Shown here: piece by piece, positions 18,024 to 32,463 of the stretch
Position numbering within the stretch: the stretch's first letter is position 1
Layout of the letters: the number at the start of each line of letters is the position of its first letter
Source of the DNA: a virus
Length of the DNA stretch: 32,463 bases
Direction: 5' to 3' (one strand)
IMG/VR virus record: IMGVR_UViG_3300022683_000007
Coordinates: 1 to 32,463 of that record
The notes under the pieces: model-generated
What the model was told of the DNA's origin: nothing
Databases searched by the model: none
What the model saw: the letters and a program-made list of their open reading frames with translations, nothing else
Made by a program: the position numbers and the translations under genes

Positions 18024-18058
18024 AACCACTGCTCCTATGGTTTGCGCTCATGTAGGTA

Positions 18059-18110
18059 ACGCGCCAGACTGGTGAGCTTCCAGCTTTTCCCCCGCTAAGG
18101 GTAGGCGCGC
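18059..18110 (-). other. GC-rich stem-loop between the scaffold and HNH genes
   Basis: 18059-18065 pairs with 18104-18110. That is 7 bp in minus sense including one G-U, but only 6 bp in plus sense. It encloses a ~38-nt interior with small sub-hairpins and has no U-tract. Function unknown (processing site or boundary of the inserted HNH island). Confidence 0.3.
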
Positions 18111-18124
18111 TATTAGTATAACAC

Positions 18125-23492: not shown

Positions 23493-23501
23493 ATAATAAC
23501 A
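23493..23501 (-). promoter_or_regulatory. Extended -10 promoter candidate (TGTTATTAT) for the late/packaging operon
   Basis: The same 9-mer sits upstream of the capsid gene (17490-17498). It lies 32 nt upstream of the terS ATG in an AT-rich 163-bp divergent intergenic region. Confidence 0.4.
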
Positions 23502-23532
23502 CAAATTAATATAACTAAATAATCTATACACT

Positions 23533-23562
23533 TTGTTACTATATCTATTTACACGATATCAT
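23533..23562 (+). promoter_or_regulatory. Sigma70-like promoter candidate for the plus-strand accessory module
   Basis: TTGTTA (23533-23538), an 18-nt spacer, then TATCAT (23557-23562). Downstream in the leader are a hairpin GGCTC-ACGGG-GAGCC (23587-23601) and a GGAGG SD. Confidence 0.3.
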
Positions 23563-23624
23563 CTATTAATAAATAATCACCTCAACGGCTCACGGGGAGC
23601 CACACAGCCTGGGAGGGCAGCACA

Positions 23625-23865: not shown

Positions 23866-24048
23866 ATGAACACACAAGAGAAACGACTTTATGCGATCAT
23901 CATGGCCTTACTGTTTGCAGTACTTGCCCTGGGCATTGCTGGAACTGGAGACATCGAGGCAGAGGAAGATAGCGCCAGAATGTATAACGAGATGGTTTGC
24001 AAGGGTCACTGGCCCGACTATGAGGGGAGAAAACCGAAATGCCCTTAA
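23866..24048 (+). CDS. Small single-pass membrane protein
   Basis: The track ORF 23809..24048 is shortened to the ATG at 23866, which has an AAGGGG SD 5 nt upstream. That gives 60 aa: MNTQEKRLYAIIMALLFAVLALGIAGTG..., with a Cys-containing tail (CKGHWPDYEGRKPKCP). Confidence 0.55.
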   Translation: MNTQEKRLYAIIMALLFAVLALGIAGTGDIEAEEDSARMYNEMVCKGHWPDYEGRKPKCP

Positions 24049-24635
24049 AAGTATTGGTCGCCTGCGAGTATAGCGGCACAGTAAGAGAATCATTTATAAG
24101 GCGCGGACACTACGCGCTTTCTTGCGATCTACTTCCTGCAGATGATAACTCACCGAATCACTATCAAGGCAATGTCTTAGATATCTTGAGCGATGATTGG
24201 GATTTAATGATAGCCCACCCGCCCTGCACCTATCTGGCAGTTAGCGGACTGCACTGGAATAAAAGAATTGAGGGTCGCGCTCAGAAAACCGAGGAGGCGT
24301 TAGAGTTTGTTCGCCTACTCTTAGATGCGCCCATTCCTAAAATCGCAGTAGAGAATCCTGTAAGCTGTATCAGTACACGCATTAGAAAGCCCAATCAAAT
24401 AATTCAGCCTTGGCATTTTGGAGATGATGCTAGCAAGAAAACTTGTTTATGGCTTAAGGGCCTGCCGCCACTTGTAGAAACGAACAGACTAGAAGGCGAC
24501 GATAAAACTCGCAGGGCAAATCAAACGCCAAGCGGACAGAACAAACTAGGGCCGAGCGCGGACAGGTGGAAAATACGTAGCAAAACTTATCAAGGAATTG
24601 CAGACGCCATGGCAGATCAATGGGGCAGCGCATGA
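24039..24635 (+). CDS. Minimal C5-cytosine-methyltransferase-like protein with no recognisable target-recognition domain
   Basis: 198 aa. Motif-I-like: KVLVACEYSGTVRESF. Motif IV with the catalytic Cys: IAHPPCTYLAVSG. Motif VI, 42 aa later: AVENPV. Motif-VIII-like: IIQPWHFG...TCLWLKGLP. C-terminal: RSKTYQGIADAMADQW. It is far shorter than typical C5-MTases (300 aa or more). Confidence 0.5.
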   Translation: MPLKVLVACEYSGTVRESFIRRGHYALSCDLLPADDNSPNHYQGNVLDILSDDWDLMIAHPPCTYLAVSGLHWNKRIEGRAQKTEEALEFVRLLLDAPIPKIAVENPVSCISTRIRKPNQIIQPWHFGDDASKKTCLWLKGLPPLVETNRLEGDDKTRRANQTPSGQNKLGPSADRWKIRSKTYQGIADAMADQWGSA

Positions 24636-24641
24636 GTGCGA

Positions 24642-24788
24642 TTACTTCTTGAAAATCCTATCCCACCCTTCAGCGTAAGCCTTCCGCGTTTCTTCCGTAG
24701 CCCTTCGGGGCTTCGATCCTTTGCCACCGTCCATTTCTGGAAAGTGGCGCTTTCTCGTTTCCTTATCTAGCTTGTGTCTTAAGTCCAC
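24642..24788 (-). CDS. Small protein ending ...GKGSKPRRATEETRKAYAEGWDRIFKK (short form; the track's long form is 24642..24893)
   Basis: The track ORF starts at TTG 24893 with no SD. In the same frame, GTG at 24788 is preceded by GGGGG 9-10 nt upstream. That GTG shares a base with the TAG stop of the hidden ORF 24788..24937 (TAGTG). The C-terminal GWDRIF motif is common in tiny phage proteins. Confidence 0.4.
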   Translation of the reverse strand: MDLRHKLDKETRKRHFPEMDGGKGSKPRRATEETRKAYAEGWDRIFKK

Positions 24789-24937
24789 TAGAGAAACCCC
24801 CACAATATCCAAGCCGACAACAACAAAAGGCTTAGGTGTATAGGGAATGTAATCTTGAAATTCTTCGCCAGGTCTAGCTTGAAGATTTCCCAATCTGCTT
24901 TTCTGTGCGCCTTCTTAATCTCTTTTTCAATACTCAT
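24788..24937 (-). CDS. Hidden 49-aa tail-anchored membrane peptide (below the ORF-track size cutoff)
   Basis: Hand translation gives MSIEKEIKKAHRKADWEIFKLDLAKNFKITFPIHLSLLLLSAWILWGFL. Its ATG (24935-24937) overlaps the TGA of the upstream HTH gene as ATGA. Its TAG overlaps the GTG at 24788. Confidence 0.4.
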   Translation of the reverse strand: MSIEKEIKKAHRKADWEIFKLDLAKNFKITFPIHLSLLLLSAWILWGFL

Positions 24938-25143
24938 ACACGCCACCAGTTGTAACCGTGTTCCTGAGCGCCACGAATGTTATTTCGGATGCAGTCAGAG
25001 CTAACGCTAAAGATCATTCCTAATCTTTCATAACCCAGCCCCTTAGTCCTTAGCTCCATCGCCTCGACTACCTGCTCAATACTTAGCTTTCGTTTCCTCG
25101 GTCTGAATACCAAAGTCGCGTCATGTAAATCATCAATCGTCAT
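24934..25143 (-). CDS. Small HTH DNA-binding protein
   Basis: The track ORF starts at TTG 25203, inside the upstream gene. The ATG at 25143 has a GGTGAGGG SD and lies 8 nt after the stop of the upstream gene. That gives 69 aa, with an HTH-like segment LSIEQVVEAMELRTKGLGYERLGMIFSVSSDCIRNNI. Confidence 0.55.
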   Translation of the reverse strand: MTIDDLHDATLVFRPRKRKLSIEQVVEAMELRTKGLGYERLGMIFSVSSDCIRNNIRGAQEHGYNWWRV

Positions 25144-25150
25144 AAATCCC

Positions 25151-25912
25151 TCACCCGTCCGTAAAACAACCACACCCAGAATCATCGAACATTGGCAGCT
25201 CAAGTGTCTGGCTATCTAATTCATCTCGAAACTCTTTTAACGTAATGTATTGAGTTTCAGTATTATGCACTTTTCTCAAAAATGGCTTCGCAGTTTCACC
25301 TATTGCCGACATTGCTCTGTTCATCTCTGCCTCATGGTAAGCAAACCGATCTGGGTTTGTTCTATATAATCGCTCAAACTGAACCAAACCTGCCTTGCAA
25401 CAAAAACCACCACAGTTGTTATGCTCGTATCCTTGCTTATAAAGCCTTGGCTTTTCAATTTCATACTTATCTAAATACCATTCAAACTTCGGTCTATAGA
25501 CTTTATGCTCAATAATTAAAGAGCGAACAGGTCGATCCCAGTTTTTTTGCGCTCTTTCTAACCTATCTATTTCTGAATAATCCATTCCCAAAATAAGCGG
25601 ATCACCTGGCTTTGCGTTTTGATCTAGCCACGCTTTTACTGGCTTTGTTTTTAGCTCAGTTGAACAGTGAGCAGTTCGGCTGTTGCCTATCCAACGCTTA
25701 TCAATGTAAACATCCCAAGGTGTTCGCCCATCTGTTAATGTTATGATTTTCTTGCCAACAGCTTTGGCTACGTCTTCATTGAAACGGTAGAGATCTTCAT
25801 CCTCTATGAGCGTATCCGCAAATATTAGGTTAAAATCTAATCCTTGCTCGTAAGCTATAAAAGCCGATACAGCGCTACCCATTCCTCCGCTAAAACTAAT
25901 TTGATAAGTCAT
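25151..25912 (-). CDS. PAPS-reductase-like PP-loop ATP pyrophosphatase family protein
   Basis: 253 aa. The N-terminal PP-loop is SFSGGMGS. A Cys cluster (NNCGGFCCKAG) and a C-terminal GCGCF are present. TAATG overlap with the upstream gene. Confidence 0.6.
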   Translation of the reverse strand: MTYQISFSGGMGSAVSAFIAYEQGLDFNLIFADTLIEDEDLYRFNEDVAKAVGKKIITLTDGRTPWDVYIDKRWIGNSRTAHCSTELKTKPVKAWLDQNAKPGDPLILGMDYSEIDRLERAQKNWDRPVRSLIIEHKVYRPKFEWYLDKYEIEKPRLYKQGYEHNNCGGFCCKAGLVQFERLYRTNPDRFAYHEAEMNRAMSAIGETAKPFLRKVHNTETQYITLKEFRDELDSQTLELPMFDDSGCGCFTDG

Positions 25913-26298
25913 TAGTTATAACTCCTCGGCTCGTAGCCTTCACTTTCCCCCATGGCTTTTAACTCATCTCGATAGTGCTTAGATATCTCTTTCTTAATCT
26001 CGGGCGTAGCCTTAAAGATACCCCGCTGCTTCTCTCTTAAAATCTCCATATGACCTTCACCAAAATACTGATTAAGCCAATCTGTAAACTTCAAGGGGTT
26101 CTCCGTAAAATCTCTGTGACACCAATGACAAAGACAAACCGCGTTATCCAGTGACCACCTAACCGACTTCAGCCTGCGCCCGTAGATATGAGCGCACTCC
26201 ATTCGTGAGTCAGTCTTTTTGCAGTGTTCACAAGTATAATTTGCTTTCTCTCGTACAACATCACTAAACCATTTATCACACGCTTCTCTTTTTATCAC
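25912..26298 (-). CDS. ninG: NinG/Rap-like HNH-type endonuclease core (the track's long form is 25912..26436)
   Basis: Core motifs: ACDKWFSDVVREKANYTCEHCKK...ECAHIYGRRLKSVRWSLDNAVCLCHWCHRDF. The first 46 codons of the track ORF are Arg/Ser-rich junk-like sequence and overlap a better ORF in another frame. GTG at 26298 has a GAGGA SD 8 nt upstream. Confidence 0.55.
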   Translation of the reverse strand: MIKREACDKWFSDVVREKANYTCEHCKKTDSRMECAHIYGRRLKSVRWSLDNAVCLCHWCHRDFTENPLKFTDWLNQYFGEGHMEILREKQRGIFKATPEIKKEISKHYRDELKAMGESEGYEPRSYN

Positions 26299-26458
26299 TT
26301 TCTTTATCCTCGATGGTGAACTGGCGCTCTCTGCCGATGGCTTTCGCGAAGTGTAAACAGCTTGGACACACCCACCCATTGAGCCTAAAATTTTCCGATG
26401 CGGTAAAGACCTCCTGCATCTGGACATCGCAATCATCGCACATCATTATCGCAATCAC
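26276..26458 (-). CDS. Zinc-ribbon peptide, probably the detached N-terminal module of NinG
   Basis: 60 aa with two CxxC pairs (CDDC...CPSC). GTG at 26458 has an AGGAG SD 7 nt upstream. It ends 23 nt inside the NinG-core ORF, at a run of five A (plus-strand T5, 26289-26293). Confidence 0.45.
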   Translation of the reverse strand: MIAIMMCDDCDVQMQEVFTASENFRLNGWVCPSCLHFAKAIGRERQFTIEDKESDKKRSV

Positions 26459-26660
26459 GTTCCCACTCCTCTATTAAAAACTCAATGTAATGTTTGGCTT
26501 TCAGTAAATCACTTAGGCCGCCCTTCTCTCTCCACCTGGAGACATACTTGACGACGTTACCCTCACAATACCCCAAACCGTTAGCCATAATATAGTCTAT
26601 CGGCTGGATATCTTTTGATTGATAGTGATCGCCACCTACTTGATAGTCTTTTGAACTCAT
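26433..26660 (-). CDS. DUF3310-like (SaV-type) early protein
   Basis: The track start is TTG 26675. The ATG at 26660 has a GGGGG SD. Motifs: YQVGGDHY...IQPIDYI...GNVVKYVSRWREKGGLSDLLKAKHYIEFLIE. Confidence 0.6.
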   Translation of the reverse strand: MSSKDYQVGGDHYQSKDIQPIDYIMANGLGYCEGNVVKYVSRWREKGGLSDLLKAKHYIEFLIEEWERDCDNDVR

Positions 26661-26668
26661 GTCACCCC

Positions 26669-27829
26669 CTAGCAAATCATTTTGTAGCTGATTGTCTGAC
26701 TCGCAACCTGCCCATATTCTTTATGATAAGTAATCACCTGAGCCTCTCGACCAGACATCCATCCACCACGGCTCGCGTATGCGTCTGGTGCTGCTAAAGT
26801 TCTGTGCTGAGTGACTAGCATTAGGTTGGTTTCTTTAACGTCAACCGAGTGATAATGCCCCATGTGAGCGTAGGCGTGTTCAGTCCGTCCGAACACTTCT
26901 CGGAATTTAGCCGCAAACACACTGTCTACGTTGGCAACCTTCCGCTTGTGTCCATGATGAAAGAACAATGCAGTCTTGCCCCACTCGAAACAGTAATAAG
27001 TATCGGCCGTGTTATCAACATCAATCCTTGGCTCTTGGTCGTACAGTGCCGTTAGGAATTCACGCATCCACGCGCTACTAGCTGGATCGTGATTAGCGTC
27101 ACACCATTTAATGTGAACCTTCGGGTACTTTTCTAAGAGCATTTTAATAACTCTACGGATAACTCTGATCGTTGTCCTGACTAGCTTTTGAAATCTTGTA
27201 TCCGCGTCTAAGATATGCCGACTCGCTGGGGTAACCGCTTCGAGTGAGTCAAAGTGGAGAAAGTCACCAAGCTGCGCAAACACACCAACGTCTGCATCTG
27301 GTGATAGCTTGATAGCCTGGGCGAACCAGTTAACTAAAGTGTCCTCTGCGATCTGTAAATCCCAGTCAGAGCCCGTTTCTTCATGCCAAGCCAGCATACC
27401 TGCATGGTAATCAGTAATAACGTACATATTGCATAGCTGAGACTTTTTAACTTTGGGCGCATCAACCTTTGGCTCTGGCTTGATTTCTTCATTGAGCGCA
27501 TCAATAGCCTCGCGCATCAACTCCATCTGACGTTCTTGGTTTATGTCAGACTTGACCCACTGGATAACTGGCTCGCCCTCTTTGTACAGCGTTGAGGTTC
27601 CTCGAACCTTAAAGCCATCAGGAACGGTATGCACCATGTCGTGTTCTGGTGAGTAGCCTTGTTTCGCGGCTCTAGCTTTGATCCTCTGACACATCATAAG
27701 AACATTTCGCTTACTTACATTAAGCGTTTTAGCTAACGTCTCAACGGTAACGCCCTGCGCTCGCGCACTAACAACTTCTCTCTGACGGTCGCTTTCGCAA
27801 AACGGTAAATAACTTTCCCAATCGTTCAT
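26669..27829 (-). CDS. Fusion of an N-terminal LuxR/sigma-r4-type HTH with a calcineurin-like metallophosphoesterase domain
   Basis: 386 aa. HTH: SDRQREVVSARAQGVTVETLAKTLNVSKRNVLMMCQRIKARA. Phosphoesterase-type metal motifs appear in order: ITDYH, GDFLHFD, ANHD, HHGH, GHYH. Confidence 0.55.
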   Translation of the reverse strand: MNDWESYLPFCESDRQREVVSARAQGVTVETLAKTLNVSKRNVLMMCQRIKARAAKQGYSPEHDMVHTVPDGFKVRGTSTLYKEGEPVIQWVKSDINQERQMELMREAIDALNEEIKPEPKVDAPKVKKSQLCNMYVITDYHAGMLAWHEETGSDWDLQIAEDTLVNWFAQAIKLSPDADVGVFAQLGDFLHFDSLEAVTPASRHILDADTRFQKLVRTTIRVIRRVIKMLLEKYPKVHIKWCDANHDPASSAWMREFLTALYDQEPRIDVDNTADTYYCFEWGKTALFFHHGHKRKVANVDSVFAAKFREVFGRTEHAYAHMGHYHSVDVKETNLMLVTQHRTLAAPDAYASRGGWMSGREAQVITYHKEYGQVASQTISYKMIC

Positions 27830-27831
27830 TT

Positions 27832-28272
27832 TTAACCCCTTTGAAACTCTCTCATCTTCATGTATTCAGAGTCAGCAGGGACCGGCAATAAAACACCATG
27901 ATCCGCTGCCCACTCTTGAATCTGATCCATGAAGTAGGTCATCTCACCCTTGGTTAGTTTTGAAGTCCTTTTTAACTGGCCTTCGATTACAGTGTTCCCA
28001 ACTACAACATCCTCTGTACCGAGGAATTTGTTTTTCATTAGCAACTTCATTTGCTCTGCGTCAACTTCGACCTTTGCAGAGAAGTGTTTGGCCATCATAC
28101 CGAACCAAGTGTGAAGCAGTGCGTTTTGACTGAGTGATCTTGGGTTTGTGTATTTTCCGGGCTTAATAACCAGAGGGGTAGAAAAGTCCCACCCCTCCAG
28201 CCAGTTGAGAAGACTACCGATCACGCCTGGTATGTCTTTCTGATCTCTTAGTAGCCAGCTTTTTTCTGTCAT
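27832..28272 (-). CDS. ninB: NinB/Orf-type recombination mediator
   Basis: 146 aa. RSLSQNALLHTWFGMMAKHF and KRTSKLTKGEMTYFMDQIQEW match the NinB pattern as I recall it. ATGA overlap with the upstream ORF. Confidence 0.6.
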   Translation of the reverse strand: MTEKSWLLRDQKDIPGVIGSLLNWLEGWDFSTPLVIKPGKYTNPRSLSQNALLHTWFGMMAKHFSAKVEVDAEQMKLLMKNKFLGTEDVVVGNTVIEGQLKRTSKLTKGEMTYFMDQIQEWAADHGVLLPVPADSEYMKMREFQRG

Positions 28273-28399
28273 AAGCTATTTGAACGTGGGCCCGCACCAG
28301 AGACCTGAACTTCTCTGGCACTTGATCCAGCATTTCTACCCTCTTTTGGCGTGAGGTTTCCGCAATAATCTCTATGGCATAAGTCCTCGGCCACCTCAC
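28214..28399 (-). CDS. Small helical protein in an overlapping frame (...IIAETSRQKRVEMLDQVPEKFRSLVRAHVQIAY...)
   Basis: 61-aa ORF with a GTG start immediately after an in-frame TGA. An internal ATG at 28333 has an AGAGGG SD 5 nt upstream. Its sequence looks more protein-like than the overlapping tail of ORF 28269..28643. It overlaps that ORF by 131 nt and ninB by 59 nt. Confidence 0.35.
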   Translation of the reverse strand: MRWPRTYAIEIIAETSRQKRVEMLDQVPEKFRSLVRAHVQIAYDRKKLATKRSERHTRRDR

Positions 28400-28643
28400 T
28401 CACCCACCGTTTCCTTAACCACTTCTCACCCCTGCTCTTTCGGTAAGTTAAATCTATATTAGAACCTTGGCTCTGAATGTAACCATCGTCCATAAGTAGG
28501 CGCAGTAACTCGTTCATTCTACTAGCATGTTTGACCATTGTACATTTTTCAGCCATTTCCTTGATAGTAAACGCTTCGCCTGAGTTGTATAGATCAGTCA
28601 ATAGTATCTCTTGCATCTGATCCACTGTCTTGAATTTAGCCAT
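28269..28643 (-). CDS. Winged-helix-like DNA-binding early protein
   Basis: 124 aa. The N-terminal 80 aa look like a winged helix (FTIKEMAEKCTMVKHASRMNELLRLLMDDGYIQSQG). The C-terminal 44 aa are low-quality sequence overlapping ORF 28214..28399. Its stop overlaps the ninB ATG (ATGA). Confidence 0.5.
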   Translation of the reverse strand: MAKFKTVDQMQEILLTDLYNSGEAFTIKEMAEKCTMVKHASRMNELLRLLMDDGYIQSQGSNIDLTYRKSRGEKWLRKRWVSEVAEDLCHRDYCGNLTPKEGRNAGSSAREVQVSGAGPRSNSL

Positions 28644-28992
28644 CGAACGCCTGCCCGTATTTATTAGTGAAGTAAACTCTCATCTGTTCCTTTTCGGAAC
28701 CCTCTAGCCAAGAGATATCAGTTAAATCATCAAGGTTTGATCTCTGCCTGATAGTCTTTGGGCCATCGAGTTTGATAGGACTGCTGCCGCCCTTATCCTG
28801 CGCCCTTGATAACCAAGAGTTAACAAACCGTTTGATACCTTTTGAAGTCTTGCGCTTTGACGGGTTAGCATCGAGCCAGCTTTCCATCTTCGCTAACTCC
28901 TGGAATACATCGACAGCTTGATAAGTCTTTTGCCATTGGATAACGTCCGTGTCCTCTGGCTGCCACTCCTCTCCCGTGTTTAAAATCATCAC
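28636..28992 (-). CDS. Conserved-looking early protein (WLDANPSKRKTSKGIKRFVNSWLSRAQ motif); possibly replication-associated
   Basis: 118 aa with tandem GTG-ATG starts and a GAGGT SD. The motif resembles one seen in lambdoid early-region proteins. I cannot name the family. Confidence 0.45.
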   Translation of the reverse strand: MMILNTGEEWQPEDTDVIQWQKTYQAVDVFQELAKMESWLDANPSKRKTSKGIKRFVNSWLSRAQDKGGSSPIKLDGPKTIRQRSNLDDLTDISWLEGSEKEQMRVYFTNKYGQAFDG

Positions 28993-29264
28993 TTTACCTC
29001 AACAATGAAACCTTCATCGGAACTACGAATGCGCTCTACTGTTTTATAGGTGCCTTGTTGTTCATCCCACAGTTGGTGACCTATTCCAACAAACGGACCA
29101 CCACTAGGATCGAACATGCCAAGATCATTCGGATCAATTCCAGACTGACCTTCCTTGCCACCAAAGCGACAGTACTTCATTGAGTCACCTTCCATTACAA
29201 ACTTGTATTCTTTATCGCTAATCTTTTCCCAATGATACTCATCACCGTATCTATTTTTCATCAC
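28989..29264 (-). CDS. Hypothetical early protein
   Basis: 91 aa with tandem GTG-ATG starts and an AAGGGG SD. It is tightly coupled on both sides. Confidence 0.5.
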   Translation of the reverse strand: MMKNRYGDEYHWEKISDKEYKFVMEGDSMKYCRFGGKEGQSGIDPNDLGMFDPSGGPFVGIGHQLWDEQQGTYKTVERIRSSDEGFIVEVK

Positions 29265-29569
29265 TCAATCCCCTTCATCTTCAGATAACACAGCGCCGCT
29301 GCTTTCGTTGGGGTTTTTGCGTCTGCGCTTGTGCAAGTACCATCTGTAAGTATTCCATAAGCTGACCATTCAAAACTGTCATAAGATAAATCCATTCCTT
29401 CACGCTCAATGATCGGCCCTATGTCTGACCAGCCTTTACAGTAGTCAACAAACTTTATGTCGTCATTTGGGTCGGTTAGTATCTCAACCTCATCACCGAC
29501 CAAGCCAATTACAAGCTTTTCATACTCAATCTTTGAAATCGCTAAGTTAATCTCTGCTTCTGTCATCAC
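29261..29569 (-). CDS. ninX: NinX-like (DUF2591-type) protein
   Basis: 102 aa with a GGAGGGAG SD. The pattern CKGWSDIGPIIEREGMDL...WSAY...TPTKAAALCYLK fits the NinX family as I recall it. Confidence 0.5.
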   Translation of the reverse strand: MMTEAEINLAISKIEYEKLVIGLVGDEVEILTDPNDDIKFVDYCKGWSDIGPIIEREGMDLSYDSFEWSAYGILTDGTCTSADAKTPTKAAALCYLKMKGIE

Positions 29570-29581
29570 TTACTCTCCCTC

Positions 29582-29620
29582 CTGCACTAGGTAATGCAAA
29601 TGTAATGCACTTTTATGCAC
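29582..29620. repeat. Helically phased short direct repeats (GTAATGCA x2, TTATGCAC, CTGCAC) in a 43-bp intergenic gap
   Basis: GTAATGCA occurs at 29591-29598 and 29602-29609 (11 bp apart). TTATGCAC is at 29613-29620 (10 bp further). CTGCAC is at 29582-29587. Candidate operator for one of the adjacent HTH or RHH proteins. Confidence 0.35.
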
Positions 29621-29807
29621 CTAAATAATACTCAGCGTACACCTTGTCATTAGAACGCTTGTGCCTGGTCTCTATCTTATAACCCTGCGCCCGTAGTCTA
29701 TGAACTCTAGATGCCAGCCGCATGCAGCCGAACCTTTCAAGAGCCAAAAGCGGGGTCACTGCGTTCCCTTCACGTAGGTAATTAAGTATTTGTTGTTCTT
29801 GATTCAT
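29613..29807 (-). CDS. Winged-HTH protein (HTH_39-like)
   Basis: The track start is TTG 29819. The ATG at 29807 has a GGAGG SD 5 nt upstream, giving 64 aa. Motif: ILNYLREGNAVTPLLALERFGCMRLASRVHRLRAQGYKIET. Confidence 0.55.
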   Translation of the reverse strand: MNQEQQILNYLREGNAVTPLLALERFGCMRLASRVHRLRAQGYKIETRHKRSNDKVYAEYYLGA

Positions 29808-29826
29808 AACTTCCTCCAAAGTTTGT

Positions 29827-29973
29827 TTAACTAATTGCTTCTGCTATTACTCTAGACACTGGCACTCCCCTCTCTTTAGCCAGTCTCTCGTATTCTGACA
29901 TCTTTGATCCTCCTATCATTCTTCGTTTGGTTCTTCCTCGAGTGTGAAACTTGCTTGTTTCTTTTGCTTTCAT
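29827..29973 (-). CDS. Hidden 48-aa ribbon-helix-helix-like protein (below the ORF-track cutoff)
   Basis: Hand translation gives MKAKETSKFHTRGRTKRRMIGGSKMSEYERLAKERGVPVSRVIAEAIS. A GGAG SD lies 6 nt upstream of the ATG. The C-terminal part fits an RHH pattern of strand, helix, GxP turn and helix. Confidence 0.5.
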   Translation of the reverse strand: MKAKETSKFHTRGRTKRRMIGGSKMSEYERLAKERGVPVSRVIAEAIS

Positions 29974-29984
29974 ATGATTCTCCA

Positions 29985-30353
29985 GACAATAGTTGTCATT
30001 TAGAGGACTGAGGGTGACCCTAATCCATAACCGTACCAGCTTAGTCCATTCAATCTACAGTCATCAGCAAACATTTCATCGGTGGGTATCTCCGATCAGG
30101 CTGCCAAAACCTTCCCATTACTGTCACCACTAAACGCTGTTTATTCCCGTCCTCTAAAGGTCGTAGATTGATTCTGGCTTTATTGAGCAGCTGCACCATG
30201 AGACAGCACTATTTAACTAGGCTCGACTAGGCGACTGATGATTGCGGTTTGTAAAACTGGTGTGGTAAACTGCATTCATCATTGACGTCGCACCTCAATG
30301 ATACTTCCTCCGCACTCCCCGTGCAACCCCCCTCCCTCCAGGGGGGTTTTTTT
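29985..30353 (+). ncRNA. Candidate ~370-nt structured non-coding RNA (family not recognised), ending at a canonical intrinsic terminator
   Basis: This is a 378-bp ORF-free gap. A plus-oriented terminator lies at 30327-30353, and a possible promoter TTGCTT-N16-TATGAT at 29951-29978. There are multiple perfect 8-10-bp helices, including an interleaved pair. One helix has a G-U that is valid only in plus sense. The 5' end is a guess. Confidence 0.4.
30327..30353 (+). terminator. Canonical rho-independent terminator, plus orientation
   Basis: CCCCCCT (30327-30333), loop CCCTCC, AGGGGGG (30340-30346), then T7 (30347-30353). The T-tract overlaps the TAA of the minus-strand HTH gene. Minus sense has no U-tract after the hairpin. 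Confidence 0.75.
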
Positions 30354-30543
30354 ATGCCTGAATTAAATACTCAATGTTGATATCTAGCGCATCACTAACC
30401 TTCTCAATCGTTGATAGCTTCAAGTCTTTCGACTTAGCGATCGTATGCGCCCTCTGTCTGGAAACCCCGAGCAGCTCCGCGAACTGCTCATAGGTTAATC
30501 CTCTAGCTTCGAGTACGTTTCTAATGCTTTGCCCTATATCCAT
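30352..30543 (-). CDS. Cro/XRE-family HTH regulator
   Basis: 63 aa with a GGGG SD. HTH: LTYEQFAELLGVSRQRAHTIAKSK. Confidence 0.7.
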   Translation of the reverse strand: MDIGQSIRNVLEARGLTYEQFAELLGVSRQRAHTIAKSKDLKLSTIEKVSDALDINIEYLIQA

Positions 30544-30552
30544 TGATTACCC

Positions 30553-30810
30553 CTAGAATGGAATTGACATGTCGTCGAAATCGTCATCGATGGCCTGCTT
30601 GGCTTGCTGCATAGCTGGTTTAGCCACCGCATCCTTAGCCTTGACTGACAGCGAAAAGAACTTCTTGCCCTGCTTAGACTCCTTGATCCAACCAGATAGG
30701 TAATGATCTACCCCGCCAACATCAATTGATCCAGTGAAGTCTGGGTGTTTCTCAGACTCTTTCTTGTCGTTGCGAAATAAAACCCCGCGATTAGTGTTAT
30801 CGTATTCCAT
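30553..30810 (-). CDS. Mini-protein carrying an SSB-type acidic C-terminal tip ([11 protein letters not shown]); non-canonical SSB or SSB-interactome mimic
   Basis: 85 aa with a GGAG SD 8 nt upstream, immediately downstream of erf. The tail closely matches the E. coli SSB tip (...DFDDDIPF). The ~60-aa N-terminal part ([27 protein letters not shown]...[20 protein letters not shown]) is too short for a canonical OB-fold SSB. Confidence 0.5.
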
Positions 30811-30813
30811 TGC

Positions 30814-31449
30814 TTACTCTCCTGTTGCCGTTCTAAATTCGGTCGATTTCATTATCGCCCGTTCTCCTGTGGTGAACACACCACCCTTACTTGGGGCTTT
30901 CCAGATTCCGATCTTTTCTTCCTCTGTTAGCTCGTCCCATGCCTCTTTAGCCATTACTAAATCACCGATCTCAATGCCAGTTTTAATGGCCTCTACACTG
31001 TCTATTAGCTTGTTAACTAGCTCCTCGTACTCATCAGGTACGGTAGGCTGTTGCGAACCACGCAATACAGCAGCTTCAGCATCATCATCGACCGCAGGTA
31101 TACCGAACAGCGCCTGTAATGCGTACCGCCTGGCATACGTCACAGCACTGCCTGCCGCCTGTGGATCGCCCTTAACCATCGGCAAAGTAAACTCGTTCTC
31201 TAGCCACTGCCCACTGGTGTGAATAAGCCGCGTCACTACACCAATTGAATTGCCGTCACGATGCGGTAGCTGGACATAACTAAGCCCGTGTTTAAAGCAT
31301 GGCTCTTTAATCGCTTTAATAACGCTTGTAAGGTCAGCATAGCTTGATTTAAAGAAAGGGTTAGCACTGCCCTTCACAGCGCCTCCCATCTCACCCTGAG
31401 CCGCACAGAGCGCCTCAGCTAGTTTCTCTATAGTCTCACTAGACTTCAT
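30814..31449 (-). CDS. erf: Erf-family single-strand annealing recombinase
   Basis: 211 aa from the ATG at 31449, with a GGAGGG SD 8 nt upstream. Erf-type pattern: ANPFFKSSYADLTSVIKAIKEPCFKHGLSYVQ...AAGSAVTYARRYALQALFGI. Confidence 0.75.
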   Translation of the reverse strand: MKSSETIEKLAEALCAAQGEMGGAVKGSANPFFKSSYADLTSVIKAIKEPCFKHGLSYVQLPHRDGNSIGVVTRLIHTSGQWLENEFTLPMVKGDPQAAGSAVTYARRYALQALFGIPAVDDDAEAAVLRGSQQPTVPDEYEELVNKLIDSVEAIKTGIEIGDLVMAKEAWDELTEEEKIGIWKAPSKGGVFTTGERAIMKSTEFRTATGE

Positions 31450-31687
31450 CAAAAAATCCCTCCATCTCTTGGTTTATAAGGTAGTCCTCTACCTCGTCCA
31501 TATCACCTACATCAAGGTCCACTTCGTAACCTTGAAAGGTAACCTCTCCCCACTCAACTTCGTAGGTAGTATGTAACGCGCGTCTACCCCATGCTTCAGT
31601 AACATCGGTTTCGCTGGTTACAACACAGTTCTTAAACTCCAGTTCATTCACTGGAACGCGAATCATTAACCATACATGTCTTGACAT
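31439..31687 (-). CDS. Strongly acidic small early protein (82 aa)
   Basis: I prefer the internal ATG at 31687, which has a GGAGGG SD 7 nt upstream, over the track start at 31765. By hand count it has 20 Asp+Glu and 5 Arg+Lys. The C-terminus reads DLDVGDMDEVEDYLINQEMEGFFDEV. Confidence 0.5.
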   Translation of the reverse strand: MSRHVWLMIRVPVNELEFKNCVVTSETDVTEAWGRRALHTTYEVEWGEVTFQGYEVDLDVGDMDEVEDYLINQEMEGFFDEV

Positions 31688-31839
31688 TGCGCTTCCCTCC
31701 CTTGTAATTCTGCGTAGCCTTCGGCAAACCCAGCCATGTAGTCTGGATTGTTGTCTAAAGGCCATGAGTACATCTCCGCATCACAGTAGCCACACCACCG
31801 TAGCCACTCTGAGTATTCGACTTGATTTAATTCATCCAT
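31666..31839 (-). CDS. Acidic small early protein (57 aa), first gene of the early operon
   Basis: The track start is TTG 31890, inside the promoter. The ATG at 31839 has a GGAGGG SD 7 nt upstream. By hand count it has 12 Asp+Glu and 2 Arg. Sequence begins MDELNQVEYSEWLRWCGYCDAEMYSW... Confidence 0.5.
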   Translation of the reverse strand: MDELNQVEYSEWLRWCGYCDAEMYSWPLDNNPDYMAGFAEGYAELQGREAQCQDMYG

Positions 31840-31868
31840 GTGGTTTCCCTCCGTCATTCCACAGACAC

Positions 31869-31897
31869 AGGTTAACCTATCTGTTTGCAAGCGTCAA
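31869..31897 (-). promoter_or_regulatory. Sigma70-like early promoter candidate
   Basis: Minus sense reads TTGACG (31892-31897), a 17-nt spacer, then TAACCT (31869-31874). It lies about 30 nt upstream of the first early-gene SD. Confidence 0.45.
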
Positions 31898-31902
31898 CAG
31901 AT
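31879..31902. promoter_or_regulatory. Inverted-repeat operator candidate overlapping the early promoter
   Basis: ATCTGTT (31879-31885) and AACAGAT (31896-31902) are 7-bp arms with a 10-bp spacer. The repeat overlaps the -35 hexamer and spacer of the early promoter candidate. Confidence 0.4.
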
Positions 31903-31960
31903 GCAATGATTTATTTTAAAGTTTTTTTGTGGTGTACTTGAAGGGTGTTAATTGCAGCTT

Positions 31961-31980
31961 GCCCCGAAAGGGGCTTTTTT
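31961..31980 (+). terminator. Second plus-oriented intrinsic-terminator-like hairpin abutting the endolysin stop codon
   Basis: GCCCC-GAAA-GGGGC followed by T6 (31975-31980). The T-tract overlaps the endolysin TAA. In minus sense the hairpin is preceded by A6 and followed by AAGCUGC, which is not U-rich. Confidence 0.5.
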
Positions 31981-32392
31981 ATACCAGATATTCGCCACGC
32001 TCTAGCATGTAAGCCAGTTCGTTAGCCCTGTCACCTACTTGAATTGCGTACCTTGAGTTTAATAATTCAGCGGCAGCTTGTGAGTATGCCTTGTTAGATA
32101 GGTGTCTAATCATTTTTTTAAAGCCTAAGAACCTGGGCAACCCAAGGTTAAACAGTAGGTCAACCATCGCCTCCTGTCGCACTATGTCTAAACCAGAGAA
32201 CCACTCAAATACTTCTAGCTCGTTGTAGCATCGCTCAATATCTGAGACGAGCATAACCTCTGCCTCATACCGACTGATACCCATGCTCTCTAGGTTTCTA
32301 CCATAGCCGATAGTTAACTGATCTGAAGTACATAGGTAAGGCTTTAGTCTTAAACCTTCGTGCCGCTTCAGCATCTCGATAAGGTTACGCAT
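31979..32392 (-). CDS. Endolysin, T4-lysozyme-type muramidase (GH24)
   Basis: 137 aa. The sequence HEGLRLKPYLCTSDQLTIGYGRNLE shows the Glu...Asp...Thr catalytic-triad spacing of T4 lysozyme. The start overlaps the holin stop once the genome is circularised. Confidence 0.85.
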   Translation of the reverse strand: MRNLIEMLKRHEGLRLKPYLCTSDQLTIGYGRNLESMGISRYEAEVMLVSDIERCYNELEVFEWFSGLDIVRQEAMVDLLFNLGLPRFLGFKKMIRHLSNKAYSQAAAELLNSRYAIQVGDRANELAYMLERGEYLV

Positions 32393-32463
32393 TAGTTTCT
32401 CACTGTCTGAATTACTTTCTCGGCTGAACGCCCAACAACGTAGCCACCCAGACCTAACTGTAA
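32365..32463. repeat. Terminal exact direct repeat, copy 2 (identical to 1..99)
   Basis: See copy 1. It contains a duplicate of the holin 3' end (32392-32463). Confidence 0.95.

Follow-up and report, generated by a model that had tools for sequence, protein, structure and literature searches.

A pseudoknotted RNA conserved on the gene-sense strand, and a predicted convergent small RNA, in the early region of an uncultured podovirus-like phage

The stretch of DNA analysed here, referred to as the window, comprises positions 1 to 32,463 of the IMG/VR virus record IMGVR_UViG_3300022683_000007 (32,463 nucleotides, nt). Between a Cro-like helix-turn-helix (HTH) gene and an open reading frame (ORF) of 48 amino acids (aa) lies a spacer without genes, the central part of which encodes a structured RNA of ~245 nt, here called RNA A. 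It is read from the minus strand, the sense strand of the neighbouring genes, and the covariation described below leaves us in almost no doubt that it is a sense-strand structured RNA. The end of the spacer next to the HTH gene holds a second element, a predicted RNA of ~76 nt on the plus strand, which is probably separate from RNA A and which we consider likely to exist. The architecture, a phage leader RNA with a convergent small RNA, is of a known kind; the fold of the RNA is new. An earlier reading of the same DNA (the original prediction) had proposed a single plus-strand RNA of ~370 nt running against all of the neighbouring genes; its strand and length were wrong for the main element, a conserved domain of the opposite sense, and right only for the short terminal RNA.

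Results

Structure and strand of RNA A

Relatives of the spacer were gathered from viral contigs by a search with Erf and with conserved DNA patterns, and copies of RNA A by nhmmer and a covariance model. The covariance model was trimmed to 219 positions and contains only helices P2, P4, P6 and P8; its match in the window spans 29995-30216 and scores 184 bits. The full structure (Table 1, helix sequences in the minus sense) was consistent across an unbiased column-pair scan, RNAalifold and inspection.

In a MAFFT alignment of 38 members that had not been fitted to the structure, 91.2% of cells were paired, compared with 74.1% in shuffles, and 28 pairs change on both sides; sliding the partners by 1-3 columns in the same alignment left 38-49% paired. 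Among 60 distinct model-aligned sequences, 91.9% of cells were paired and 33 of 42 pairs change on both sides, giving a covariation score of 0.374 as against 0.115 in shuffles, a value reached by 0 of 500 shuffles. Helices P5, P10 and PK (pseudoknot) covary though they lie outside the structure of the covariance model. Compensatory changes thus exceed both the shuffled and the slid controls, and do so on one strand, as a conserved RNA structure would require.

RNA A was assigned to the gene-sense strand because its U.G and G.U pairs are invariant, because in the minus sense it has 202 G.U cells and only 55 A.C cells, and because hairpin P7 is capped in relatives by GAAA, GAGA, GUAA, UUCG or UACG, which are GNRA or UNCG tetraloops in the minus sense only. 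Folding energy gives the element no support: the minimum free energy (MFE) of 29986-30240 has z = +1.4 on the minus strand and +0.4 on the plus strand, since the fold is pseudoknotted and the MFE is blind to it.

The fold consists of an H-type pseudoknot formed by P2 and PK, followed by a core in which P4 and P6 cross P5 and P10. All five pairs of P2 covary, 98.9% of its cells are paired, its closing U.G is present in 49/55 sequences, and the helix was also recovered by the unbiased column-pair scan. In PK three of four pairs covary (the second being UA, CG or GC) and 96.8% of cells are paired. The long-range helix P4 covaries at 8/8 pairs, with up to six pair types per position. P5 covaries at 8/10 pairs, for example by a change of AU to GC in 17 sequences; its strands in one relative (L049) are UUUGAUGGAC/GUCCAUCAAA. 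For P10 the figures are 6/6 pairs and 99.4% of cells. P6 is flanked by the invariant junctions GGGAAUAAA (30140-30148) and AUGACU and is itself invariant in 59 sequences; this invariance means that it offers no evidence on pairing, and its G.U pair (58/59) is compatible with the minus strand only. The junction sequences ACCUUUGAGGACGGGAAUAAACAGCGU and UUGCUGAUGACU are invariant, and an invariant CUGAUGA lies within RNA A. Of the peripheral hairpins, P9 covaries by eye (AUGG/CCAU, GUCG/CGAC) and is missing in one clade.

Several of these elements had been picked out in the original prediction. Its two longest helices, of 10 base pairs (29999-30008 with 30149-30158) and 9 base pairs (30050-30058 with 30163-30171), are P5 and P4 respectively, and both are genuine, as is the pseudoknot made by their crossing; the structured non-coding RNA it had suspected is supported by this covariation among homologous spacers. 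Other proposals did not hold. At 29985-29997 the sequence is conserved and the proposed hairpin is not kept; this segment is more likely to be the 3' strand of the closing helix P11. The proposed helix 30005-30012/30040-30047 overlaps P5 and is not maintained where P5 covaries (e.g. L219): there the alternative pairing GGACUA/UAGUCC is not restored. Iterons or a DNA origin had been offered as an alternative for the central element. However, the supposed repeats are helix arms and the covariation includes wobbles specific to RNA of one strand; the two ACTAGGC copies form the opposing arms of hairpin P1, and the GTAAA(A)CTG repeats sit in the predicted plus-strand promoter described below.

Distribution and conservation

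RNA A gave 62 covariance-model matches in viral contigs and is present in at least 104 metagenome contigs, the number confirmed among the first 120 matches of a 22-base two-part pattern, with more than 150 instances overall. No Rfam family lies at the spacer on either strand. The whole window, compared with Rfam 15 (4227 models, at gathering threshold), gave only int-alpA at 18045-18111, and 29700-30600 at E ≤ 10 gave only sub-threshold, terminator-driven matches on the plus strand and none to RNA A. Twelve related loci also gave nothing against Rfam. By blastn there was no match to three variants of RNA A or of a second element, X (see below), among 50,697 GenBank phages, and no match among the 72,556 plasmids of PLSDB. 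In genome contigs a 14-mer pattern found chance matches only, none of L063-L182 being supported by nhmmer. All homologues of Erf come from metagenomes. No description of RNA A was found in the literature, although the IMG/VR survey of 10,000 csRNAs (PMC10690425) may list it without a name.

RNA A is far more conserved than the proteins encoded around it: in L039 its core is ~95% identical and Erf is 47% identical. Such conservation fits an interaction with a conserved host machine. The distribution is mosaic, RNA A being nearly identical in phages whose Erf proteins have diverged to this extent.

By blastn the spacer consists of two independently inherited modules, one terminator-proximal (~30263-30353) and one central (~29984-30250), and the central module is conserved, with many insertions and deletions, even where Erf is only 47% identical. 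The spacer is non-coding, as first thought. Relatives differ by many insertions and deletions of 1, 2 and 4 nt, and these, not being multiples of three, fall also within the 49-codon minus-strand ORF at 30050-30199 (L002, L039); no conserved reading frame was found in the spacer.

A terminator-proximal module with predicted facing promoters

A loose pattern for the terminator-proximal module returned mostly chance matches, of which nhmmer kept 31, reducing to 17 distinct sequences. The module is predicted to hold two face-to-face promoters, with starts at ~30291 (minus) and ~30278 (plus), both recognised as consensus matches. The predicted sense promoter is preserved in 17/17 sequences, TTGCAC (TTGCGC in one lineage) being separated from TATCAT by a 17-18-nt spacer whose letters vary. 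Across the same sequences the predicted plus-strand promoter exists in three divergent versions, all of which keep TTGnnn, a spacer of 16-18 nt, TAAACT, TAAAGT or TACACT, and the same distance to hairpin H3. This conserved promoter at 30242-30271 predicts a plus-strand RNA of only ~76 nt, for which the MFE is -28.8 kcal/mol (z = -5.9).

The plus-strand terminator of the original prediction was upheld. A terminator scan detects the stem at 30325-30348 followed by T7, the stem shows compensatory changes in the 17 related sequences, and 30325-30353 has the features of a Rho-independent terminator. The U-tract, which exists in the plus sense only, is of full length in 11/17 relatives and interrupted or set back in 6/17; in some relatives the loop is UUCG or GAAA, again in the plus sense only. 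The 8-base-pair helix 30278-30285/30295-30302, the stem of H3, is conserved as had been proposed, with changes confined to one-sided ones involving G.U: there are six G.U cells, which would be A.C in the minus sense, and no double-sided changes. The hexamers of the sense promoter overlap arms of H2 and H3, and the unpaired bases that complete them are invariant (AA after H2, A after H3). H2 and H3 could also be palindromic operators. A small ORF following GGAGG motifs in the minus sense was considered and found not to be conserved.

The CCUCC motifs to which the original prediction had drawn attention are where it placed them, and are carried by the probable plus-strand terminated transcript. 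The 9-mer GGAGGAAGU occurs exactly twice in the window, both times on the minus strand: at 29809-29817, in the ribosome-binding site of a winged HTH (HTH_39) gene, and as the complement of the linker 30303-30311. Among the genes downstream, it is the ribosome-binding site of an ORF of winged-HTH size (62-69 aa) that has the longest complement to the small RNA (6-10 nt) in 11/12 loci. Matches of 7-8 nt to UGGAGGG are found at upstream genes as well, which tempers the idea of this target. The sequences suggest that the small RNA may pair in trans with ribosome-binding sites through CCUCC, a lead and not a finding.

Table 1. Coordinates of RNA A, the terminator-proximal module, neighbouring genes and related elements (window positions unless a locus is given; promoters and the small RNA are predicted)
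Feature	Position	Strand	Description
Spacer	29974-30351		gap without genes, between HTH gene and 48-aa ORF
RNA A	29987..30230	minus	structured leader, ~245 nt, several pseudoknots; from hairpin P1 to closing helix P11
P1		minus	CUAG/CUAG hairpin; covaries to AGAG/CUCU and GUAGUG/CACUAC
P2	30190..30207	minus	GCUGU (30203-30207) with GCAGC (30190-30194)
PK 5' strand	30195-30198	minus	UGGU, inside P2 loop
PK 3' strand	30175..30178	minus	GCCA; with P2 loop gives H-type pseudoknot
P4	30163..30170 with 30051-30058	minus	CAAUCUAC with GUAGAUUG; long-range
P5	30149..30158 with 29999-30008	minus	UUUAGAGGAC with GUCCUCUAAA; crosses P4
P6	30135..30139 with 30065-30069	minus	CAGCG with UGCUG; invariant
P7	30116-30123	minus	CA-GUAA-UG; peripheral, variable hairpin
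P8	30110-30113/30097-30100	minus	AAGG/CCUG; conserved loop; 3/4 pairs covary
P9	30092-30096/30078-30082	minus	AUCGG/CCGAU; peripheral
P10	30123..30128 with 30013-30018	minus	GGUGAC with GUCACC; crosses P4 and P6
P11		minus	CAAUA/UAUUG; tentative closing helix
Predicted sense promoter	30298..30326	minus	-35 TTGCAC 30321-30326, 17-nt spacer, -10 TATCAT 30298-30303; start ~30291
Predicted plus-strand promoter	30242..30271	plus	-35 TTGCGG 30242-30247, 18-nt spacer, TGgTAAACT, extended -10 30266-30271
Predicted convergent small RNA, ~76 nt	30278..30353	plus	H3, linker, H2, terminator H1; start ~30278
H3 hairpin	30278-30302	plus	
Linker	30303-30311	plus	ACUUCCUCC; single-stranded, C-rich
H2 hairpin	30312-30324	plus	GCAC/GUGC to GCGC/GCGC compensatory in one lineage
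H1 terminator	30325-30353	plus	9-pair stem, CCCUCC loop, U7
Erf	30814-31452		upstream of spacer in transcription order
Short SSB-like protein	30553-30810		between Erf and HTH gene
Cro-like HTH gene	30352-30543	minus	Pfam HTH_3, E = 5.5e-9; stop codon abuts plus-strand terminator
Shine-Dalgarno sequence (GGAG) and ATG of 48-aa ORF	29971..29983	minus	begins 4 nt past end of RNA A
48-aa ORF	29827-29973	minus	first ORF 3' of spacer
Type B	L008:7175-7400	plus	~215-nt conserved non-coding element
X	L034:8644-8740 (+) and ~35 other loci		~95 nt

Genomic context of RNA A, and the elements X and type B

RNA A lies on the coding strand in every locus, and in all clades an ORF begins within ~30 nt of its end. 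Among the 78 distinct loci with enough downstream sequence, a helicase gene is found at most 3 kb downstream in 36 (46%) and a primase-like gene in 29. Elsewhere RNA A stands before an Erf/Rad52-type recombinase, right where the early region begins, or comes after a Cro-like gene as in the window, and in some phages it heads the whole early operon with no gene of the same strand upstream (L054, L200). In many relatives that carry RNA A the helicase and a primase-like protein are directly downstream; neither is recognised in the window phage.

A sigma-70-like sense promoter is predicted 78-86 nt upstream of RNA A in the clade of the window (TTGCAC-N17/18-TATCAT) and 135-170 nt upstream in other clades (e.g. 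TTGACG/TTTACA-N17-TAGATT). In about 38 of 54 loci, which are not independent of one another, a well-scoring antisense promoter lies 40-100 nt upstream of RNA A.

In most clades the interval between the sigma-70-like promoter and RNA A is occupied by element X together with a hairpin bearing a U/C-rich run; X is absent from the window. It consists of GUGCCGGACGG, a hairpin and UAGCnnACCGGACUGA...CCGCACUCCGGCAC, with a variant that starts GCGUCGGUGGGG. Its outer stem and hairpin covary, and G.U cells outnumber A.C cells by 23 to 7 in the sense orientation, the antisense count being 20 to 0. X has no match in Rfam.

In 13/17 of the module sequences a different conserved non-coding element, type B, which is unrelated to RNA A, takes its place, and homologous genes follow. 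In these sibling phages type B stands exactly at the position of RNA A, between the HTH/small-RNA module and the homologous downstream genes. It occurs in L004-L006, L009, L010, L045-L048, L001, L003, L014, L040 and L336 as well as in the locus of Table 1. It shows compensatory changes (GGCCGAGG..CCUCGG versus GGCUGGGG..CCCCAG) and has GNRA-capped hairpins. Type B likewise has no Rfam match; loci L034 (X plus RNA A) and L008 (type B) gave nothing relevant at E ≤ 5.

The window is almost the whole of a podovirus-like genome of ~34 kb in which nearly all genes are on the minus strand. Terminase, portal, major head protein and tail proteins were recognised among the structural genes; the large terminase is ~52% identical to those of Burkholderia BcepC6B-like phages, and marine podophages are also related. 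After the 48-aa ORF come, in order, the winged-helix HTH_39 protein, NinX-like and NinB proteins, a phrog_704 exonuclease, a DUF3310 protein, a NinG-like protein and a PAPS-reductase-like protein. No polymerase, helicase, primase or replication initiator was recognised among the early genes (24600-32400), nor could a phage RNA polymerase be recognised in the window phage.

Discussion

In the reading that we favour, the spacer would serve as a compact control region that has one RNA gene on each strand. RNA A would be the 5' leader of the early operon behind it, with transcription both starting at the sigma-70-type promoter (30326-30298) and arriving as read-through out of the HTH operon. The convergent promoter at 30242-30271 would yield the ~76-nt plus-strand RNA, its transcription crossing the sense promoter and ending at the terminator that abuts the HTH stop codon. 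As the promoters face each other they would probably interfere, and the small RNA would also be antisense to the read-through transcripts. The step held with the lowest certainty is that RNA A may act in cis, either on the transcript to which it belongs or on the RNA polymerase making it, and in this way license expression of the operon behind. The mechanism of first choice would be one that governs elongation or termination, as HK022 put and Bacillus EAR do; less likely, RNA A might set the stability or translation of the mRNA. That it is a cis-acting leader regulator of any sort is a view we adopt tentatively, at slightly less than an even chance, while antitermination in particular is possible but rather doubtful.

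The position at the head of an operon, the extreme constraint on the junctions, the lack of dependence on a neighbouring protein, the exchangeability of the element and the one-strand genome without an RNA polymerase gene together point to a cis element meeting a conserved host machine. In the lambdoid phages nut and put sites likewise interchange as cassettes. The original prediction had listed a put/nut-like element last among its alternatives, and of these it comes closest to the reading favoured here. Like HK022 put, RNA A is a sense-strand, promoter-proximal RNA of a phage early operon, upstream of the genes that it would control (the promoters of RNA A being predicted); putR lies just after cro, as RNA A lies just after the Cro-like HTH gene; and neither appears to need a dedicated phage protein nearby. 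Nut and put are positional alternatives in related phages, as RNA A and type B are here (for put, see also PMC9378689). In size put and RNA A part company: put has ~70 nt and two stem-loops of conserved sequence, whereas RNA A has ~245 nt, at least seven helices and at least three crossings of the pseudoknot type, and there is no sequence similarity between them.

The predicted plus-strand RNA resembles lambda oop and P22 sar in being short, in having its own promoter and intrinsic terminator, in running against an early operon immediately downstream of a gene in the Cro/CII position, and in the face-to-face arrangement of promoters. However, of the upstream gene it covers the stop codon alone, unlike oop, which overlaps a coding region, and sar, which overlaps a ribosome-binding site; again there is no sequence similarity.

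Several points weigh against our interpretation. Both promoters are consensus matches, and when the region is scanned for promoters the number of sites does not exceed that in shuffles. No strong sense-strand intrinsic terminator was found downstream of RNA A in the early region, and so there is nothing obvious to antiterminate, in contrast to put with its downstream terminators. RNA A is also three to four times the length of put and far more elaborate than any known antitermination RNA. In other clades X, or the attenuator-like hairpin with its U/C-rich run, could hold the control and RNA A could have another job. The small RNA overlaps the sense leader by only ~14 nt from the predicted start at ~30291. 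Finally, the -35 and -10 hexamers also fall in arms of H2 and H3, and the plus-strand RNA could by itself account for their conservation.

RNA A could alternatively be catalytic, for example a self-cleaving ribozyme that cuts a polycistronic or leader transcript and defines the 5' end of the downstream mRNA, with type B as a second class. We think this unlikely, although the invariant junction nucleotides of its multi-pseudoknot core, the invariant CUGAUGA and the replacement by an unrelated structured RNA at the same site would all be in keeping with it; different self-cleaving classes are known to occur in shared genetic contexts. Furthermore, the strand order P4a-P5a-P6a...P6b-P4b...P5b is that of the nested double pseudoknot of hepatitis delta virus (HDV)-like ribozymes, with P4, P5 and P6 in the places of P1, P2 and P3. 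The likeness does not extend to detail: the joining regions greatly exceed those of HDV-like ribozymes in length (9 nt for P5a-P6a, 6 nt for P6b-P4b), lengths incompatible with an HDV core; ~100 nt are inserted at the place of L3; no conserved catalytic C is evident at J4/2; and an additional conserved 5' domain, P2/PK, lies upstream of where an HDV-type cut would fall. A hammerhead core was rejected as well, for CUGAUGA is present but RACC rather than GAAA follows the 5' strand of P4. No Rfam ribozyme family matches, even at E ≤ 10, and 220-250 nt is large for a self-cleaver. A likeness to the group I intron 'S element' (AAUAGUCC) was rejected on inspection.

The order of elements also invites comparison with the ColE1 RNA II/RNA I system and the IncB/IncI-alpha and R1 rep leaders. 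There too the leader encodes a short, convergent antisense RNA that has three stem-loops and a terminator of its own, and beyond it come a large structured sense RNA and then replication genes. For IncB/IncI-alpha the regulated feature is a long-range pseudoknot in the leader. RNA A might thus be a primer or pre-primer RNA of a replication origin, like RNA II, with the antisense RNA setting the frequency of initiation as RNA I does, which we rate as quite unlikely. The promoter, the short convergent antisense RNA and the large structured sense RNA come in the right order, helicase and primase-like genes directly follow RNA A in about half of the loci, and the window phage itself has no recognisable initiator, helicase, primase or polymerase. 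On the other hand, priming through an R-loop needs no invariant junctions across very divergent phages, the downstream genes are not always replication genes, RNA A is far more conserved and complex than the plasmid leaders, and the ORF within 30 nt of its end means that the same RNA is an mRNA leader. The antisense overlap with the predicted sense leader is only the ~14 nt already mentioned, full complementarity being restricted to read-through transcripts of the HTH operon. There is no match to Rfam RNAI and no homologue among the 72,556 plasmids, and the cumulative GC skew has no inflection at the spacer.

An equally improbable alternative is that RNA A is a stable RNA, produced early and in large amounts, that acts in trans by sequestering some host protein as a decoy or sponge (for instance a defence factor, an RNase or a global RNA-binding protein), with type B as an alternative accessory cassette. 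The exchange of RNA A and type B between near-identical flanks, with the neighbouring proteins unchanged, is what accessory or anti-defence modules do, and the promoter-proximal place in an early operon and the mosaic distribution, with near-identity of RNA A where Erf is 47% identical, would also be consistent with such a role. It is less easily squared with the 3' end of RNA A, which lacks both a terminator and a processing signal and in every case runs into the ribosome-binding site of the next ORF, or with a conservation across clades that exceeds what a variable defence-protein target would lead one to expect.

As a riboswitch aptamer, RNA A would gate the early or replication operon in response to a metabolite or signal that it senses. 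It is like large aptamers in size, in its pseudoknots and in having invariant purine-rich junctions, and it is in a 5' leader. However, no expression platform is visible, there being neither a terminator after RNA A nor a helix that sequesters the Shine-Dalgarno sequence; the linker from RNA A to that sequence is a variable A-rich stretch with no conserved partner. The downstream genes are heterogeneous, an unrelated RNA replaces RNA A in sibling phages, and Rfam gives no match, making this reading very unlikely.

The ~370-nt plus-strand RNA of the original prediction, running from TTGCTT-N16-TATGAT at 29951-29978 to the terminator at 30353 with its helices in the plus sense, is extremely improbable: that promoter-like sequence is present, the terminator is plus-sense and the 380-nt spacer folds slightly better than shuffles on the plus strand (z = -2.2, compared with -1.3 on the minus strand, both modest), but all strand-specific signals for 29987-30230 are minus-sense, the proposed promoter is not conserved because it extends over the beginning of a gene in whose place relatives carry another, and the terminator module occurs without RNA A in 13 sequences, where it keeps its own nearby promoter.

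To our knowledge, few large RNAs of bacteria or phages combine several pseudoknots with invariant junctions, and most of those characterised are ribozymes, riboswitches or binders of core cellular complexes. RNA A is abundant and is absent from Rfam 15, and it heads early or replication operons in phages without obvious regulators; its function could reveal a protein-independent phage control of transcription, mRNA fate or replication, and would also explain the timing of expression in ~34-kb podophages that use one strand. It is conceivable, if rather less than probable, that RNA A and type B are founding members of new large-RNA classes specific to uncultured aquatic podophages and exchanged as promoter-plus-leader cassettes, each being a ribozyme or a protein-free reprogrammer of the host transcription or replication machinery. 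With the alignment, the structure and the cassette system of RNA A, type B and X in hand, these ideas are directly testable in vitro.

Other features of the window

A second terminator that is backwards with respect to the genes lies at 31955-31980, directly 3' of the lysozyme stop codon. In the plus sense it reads GCCCC-GAAA-GGGGC followed by T6, and in the gene sense A6 followed by GCCCC-UUUC-GGGGC without a U-tract; together with 30325-30353 this means that both strong terminators of the early region are oriented against the genes. After it, in the gene sense, a -35-like hexamer TTGACG is found at ~31895.

The sole clear plus-strand gene, a DNA methyltransferase (phrog_757) at 24039-24635 (+), separates the early from the structural genes, and plus-strand promoter-like sites cluster ahead of it at 23496-23577 (+). 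The Rfam int-alpA motif at 18045-18111 (-) scores 48.7 bits against a gathering threshold of 35.8; it falls within the structural genes, flanked by the major head protein region and a 246-aa ORF. No integrase or AlpA gene is recognisable in the window.

One 34.5-kb contig (L001/L007, IMGVR_UViG_3300045135_000767) has the Erf region at both ends, which suggests a circular or terminally redundant genome of ~34 kb; by this measure the window would be a nearly complete genome.

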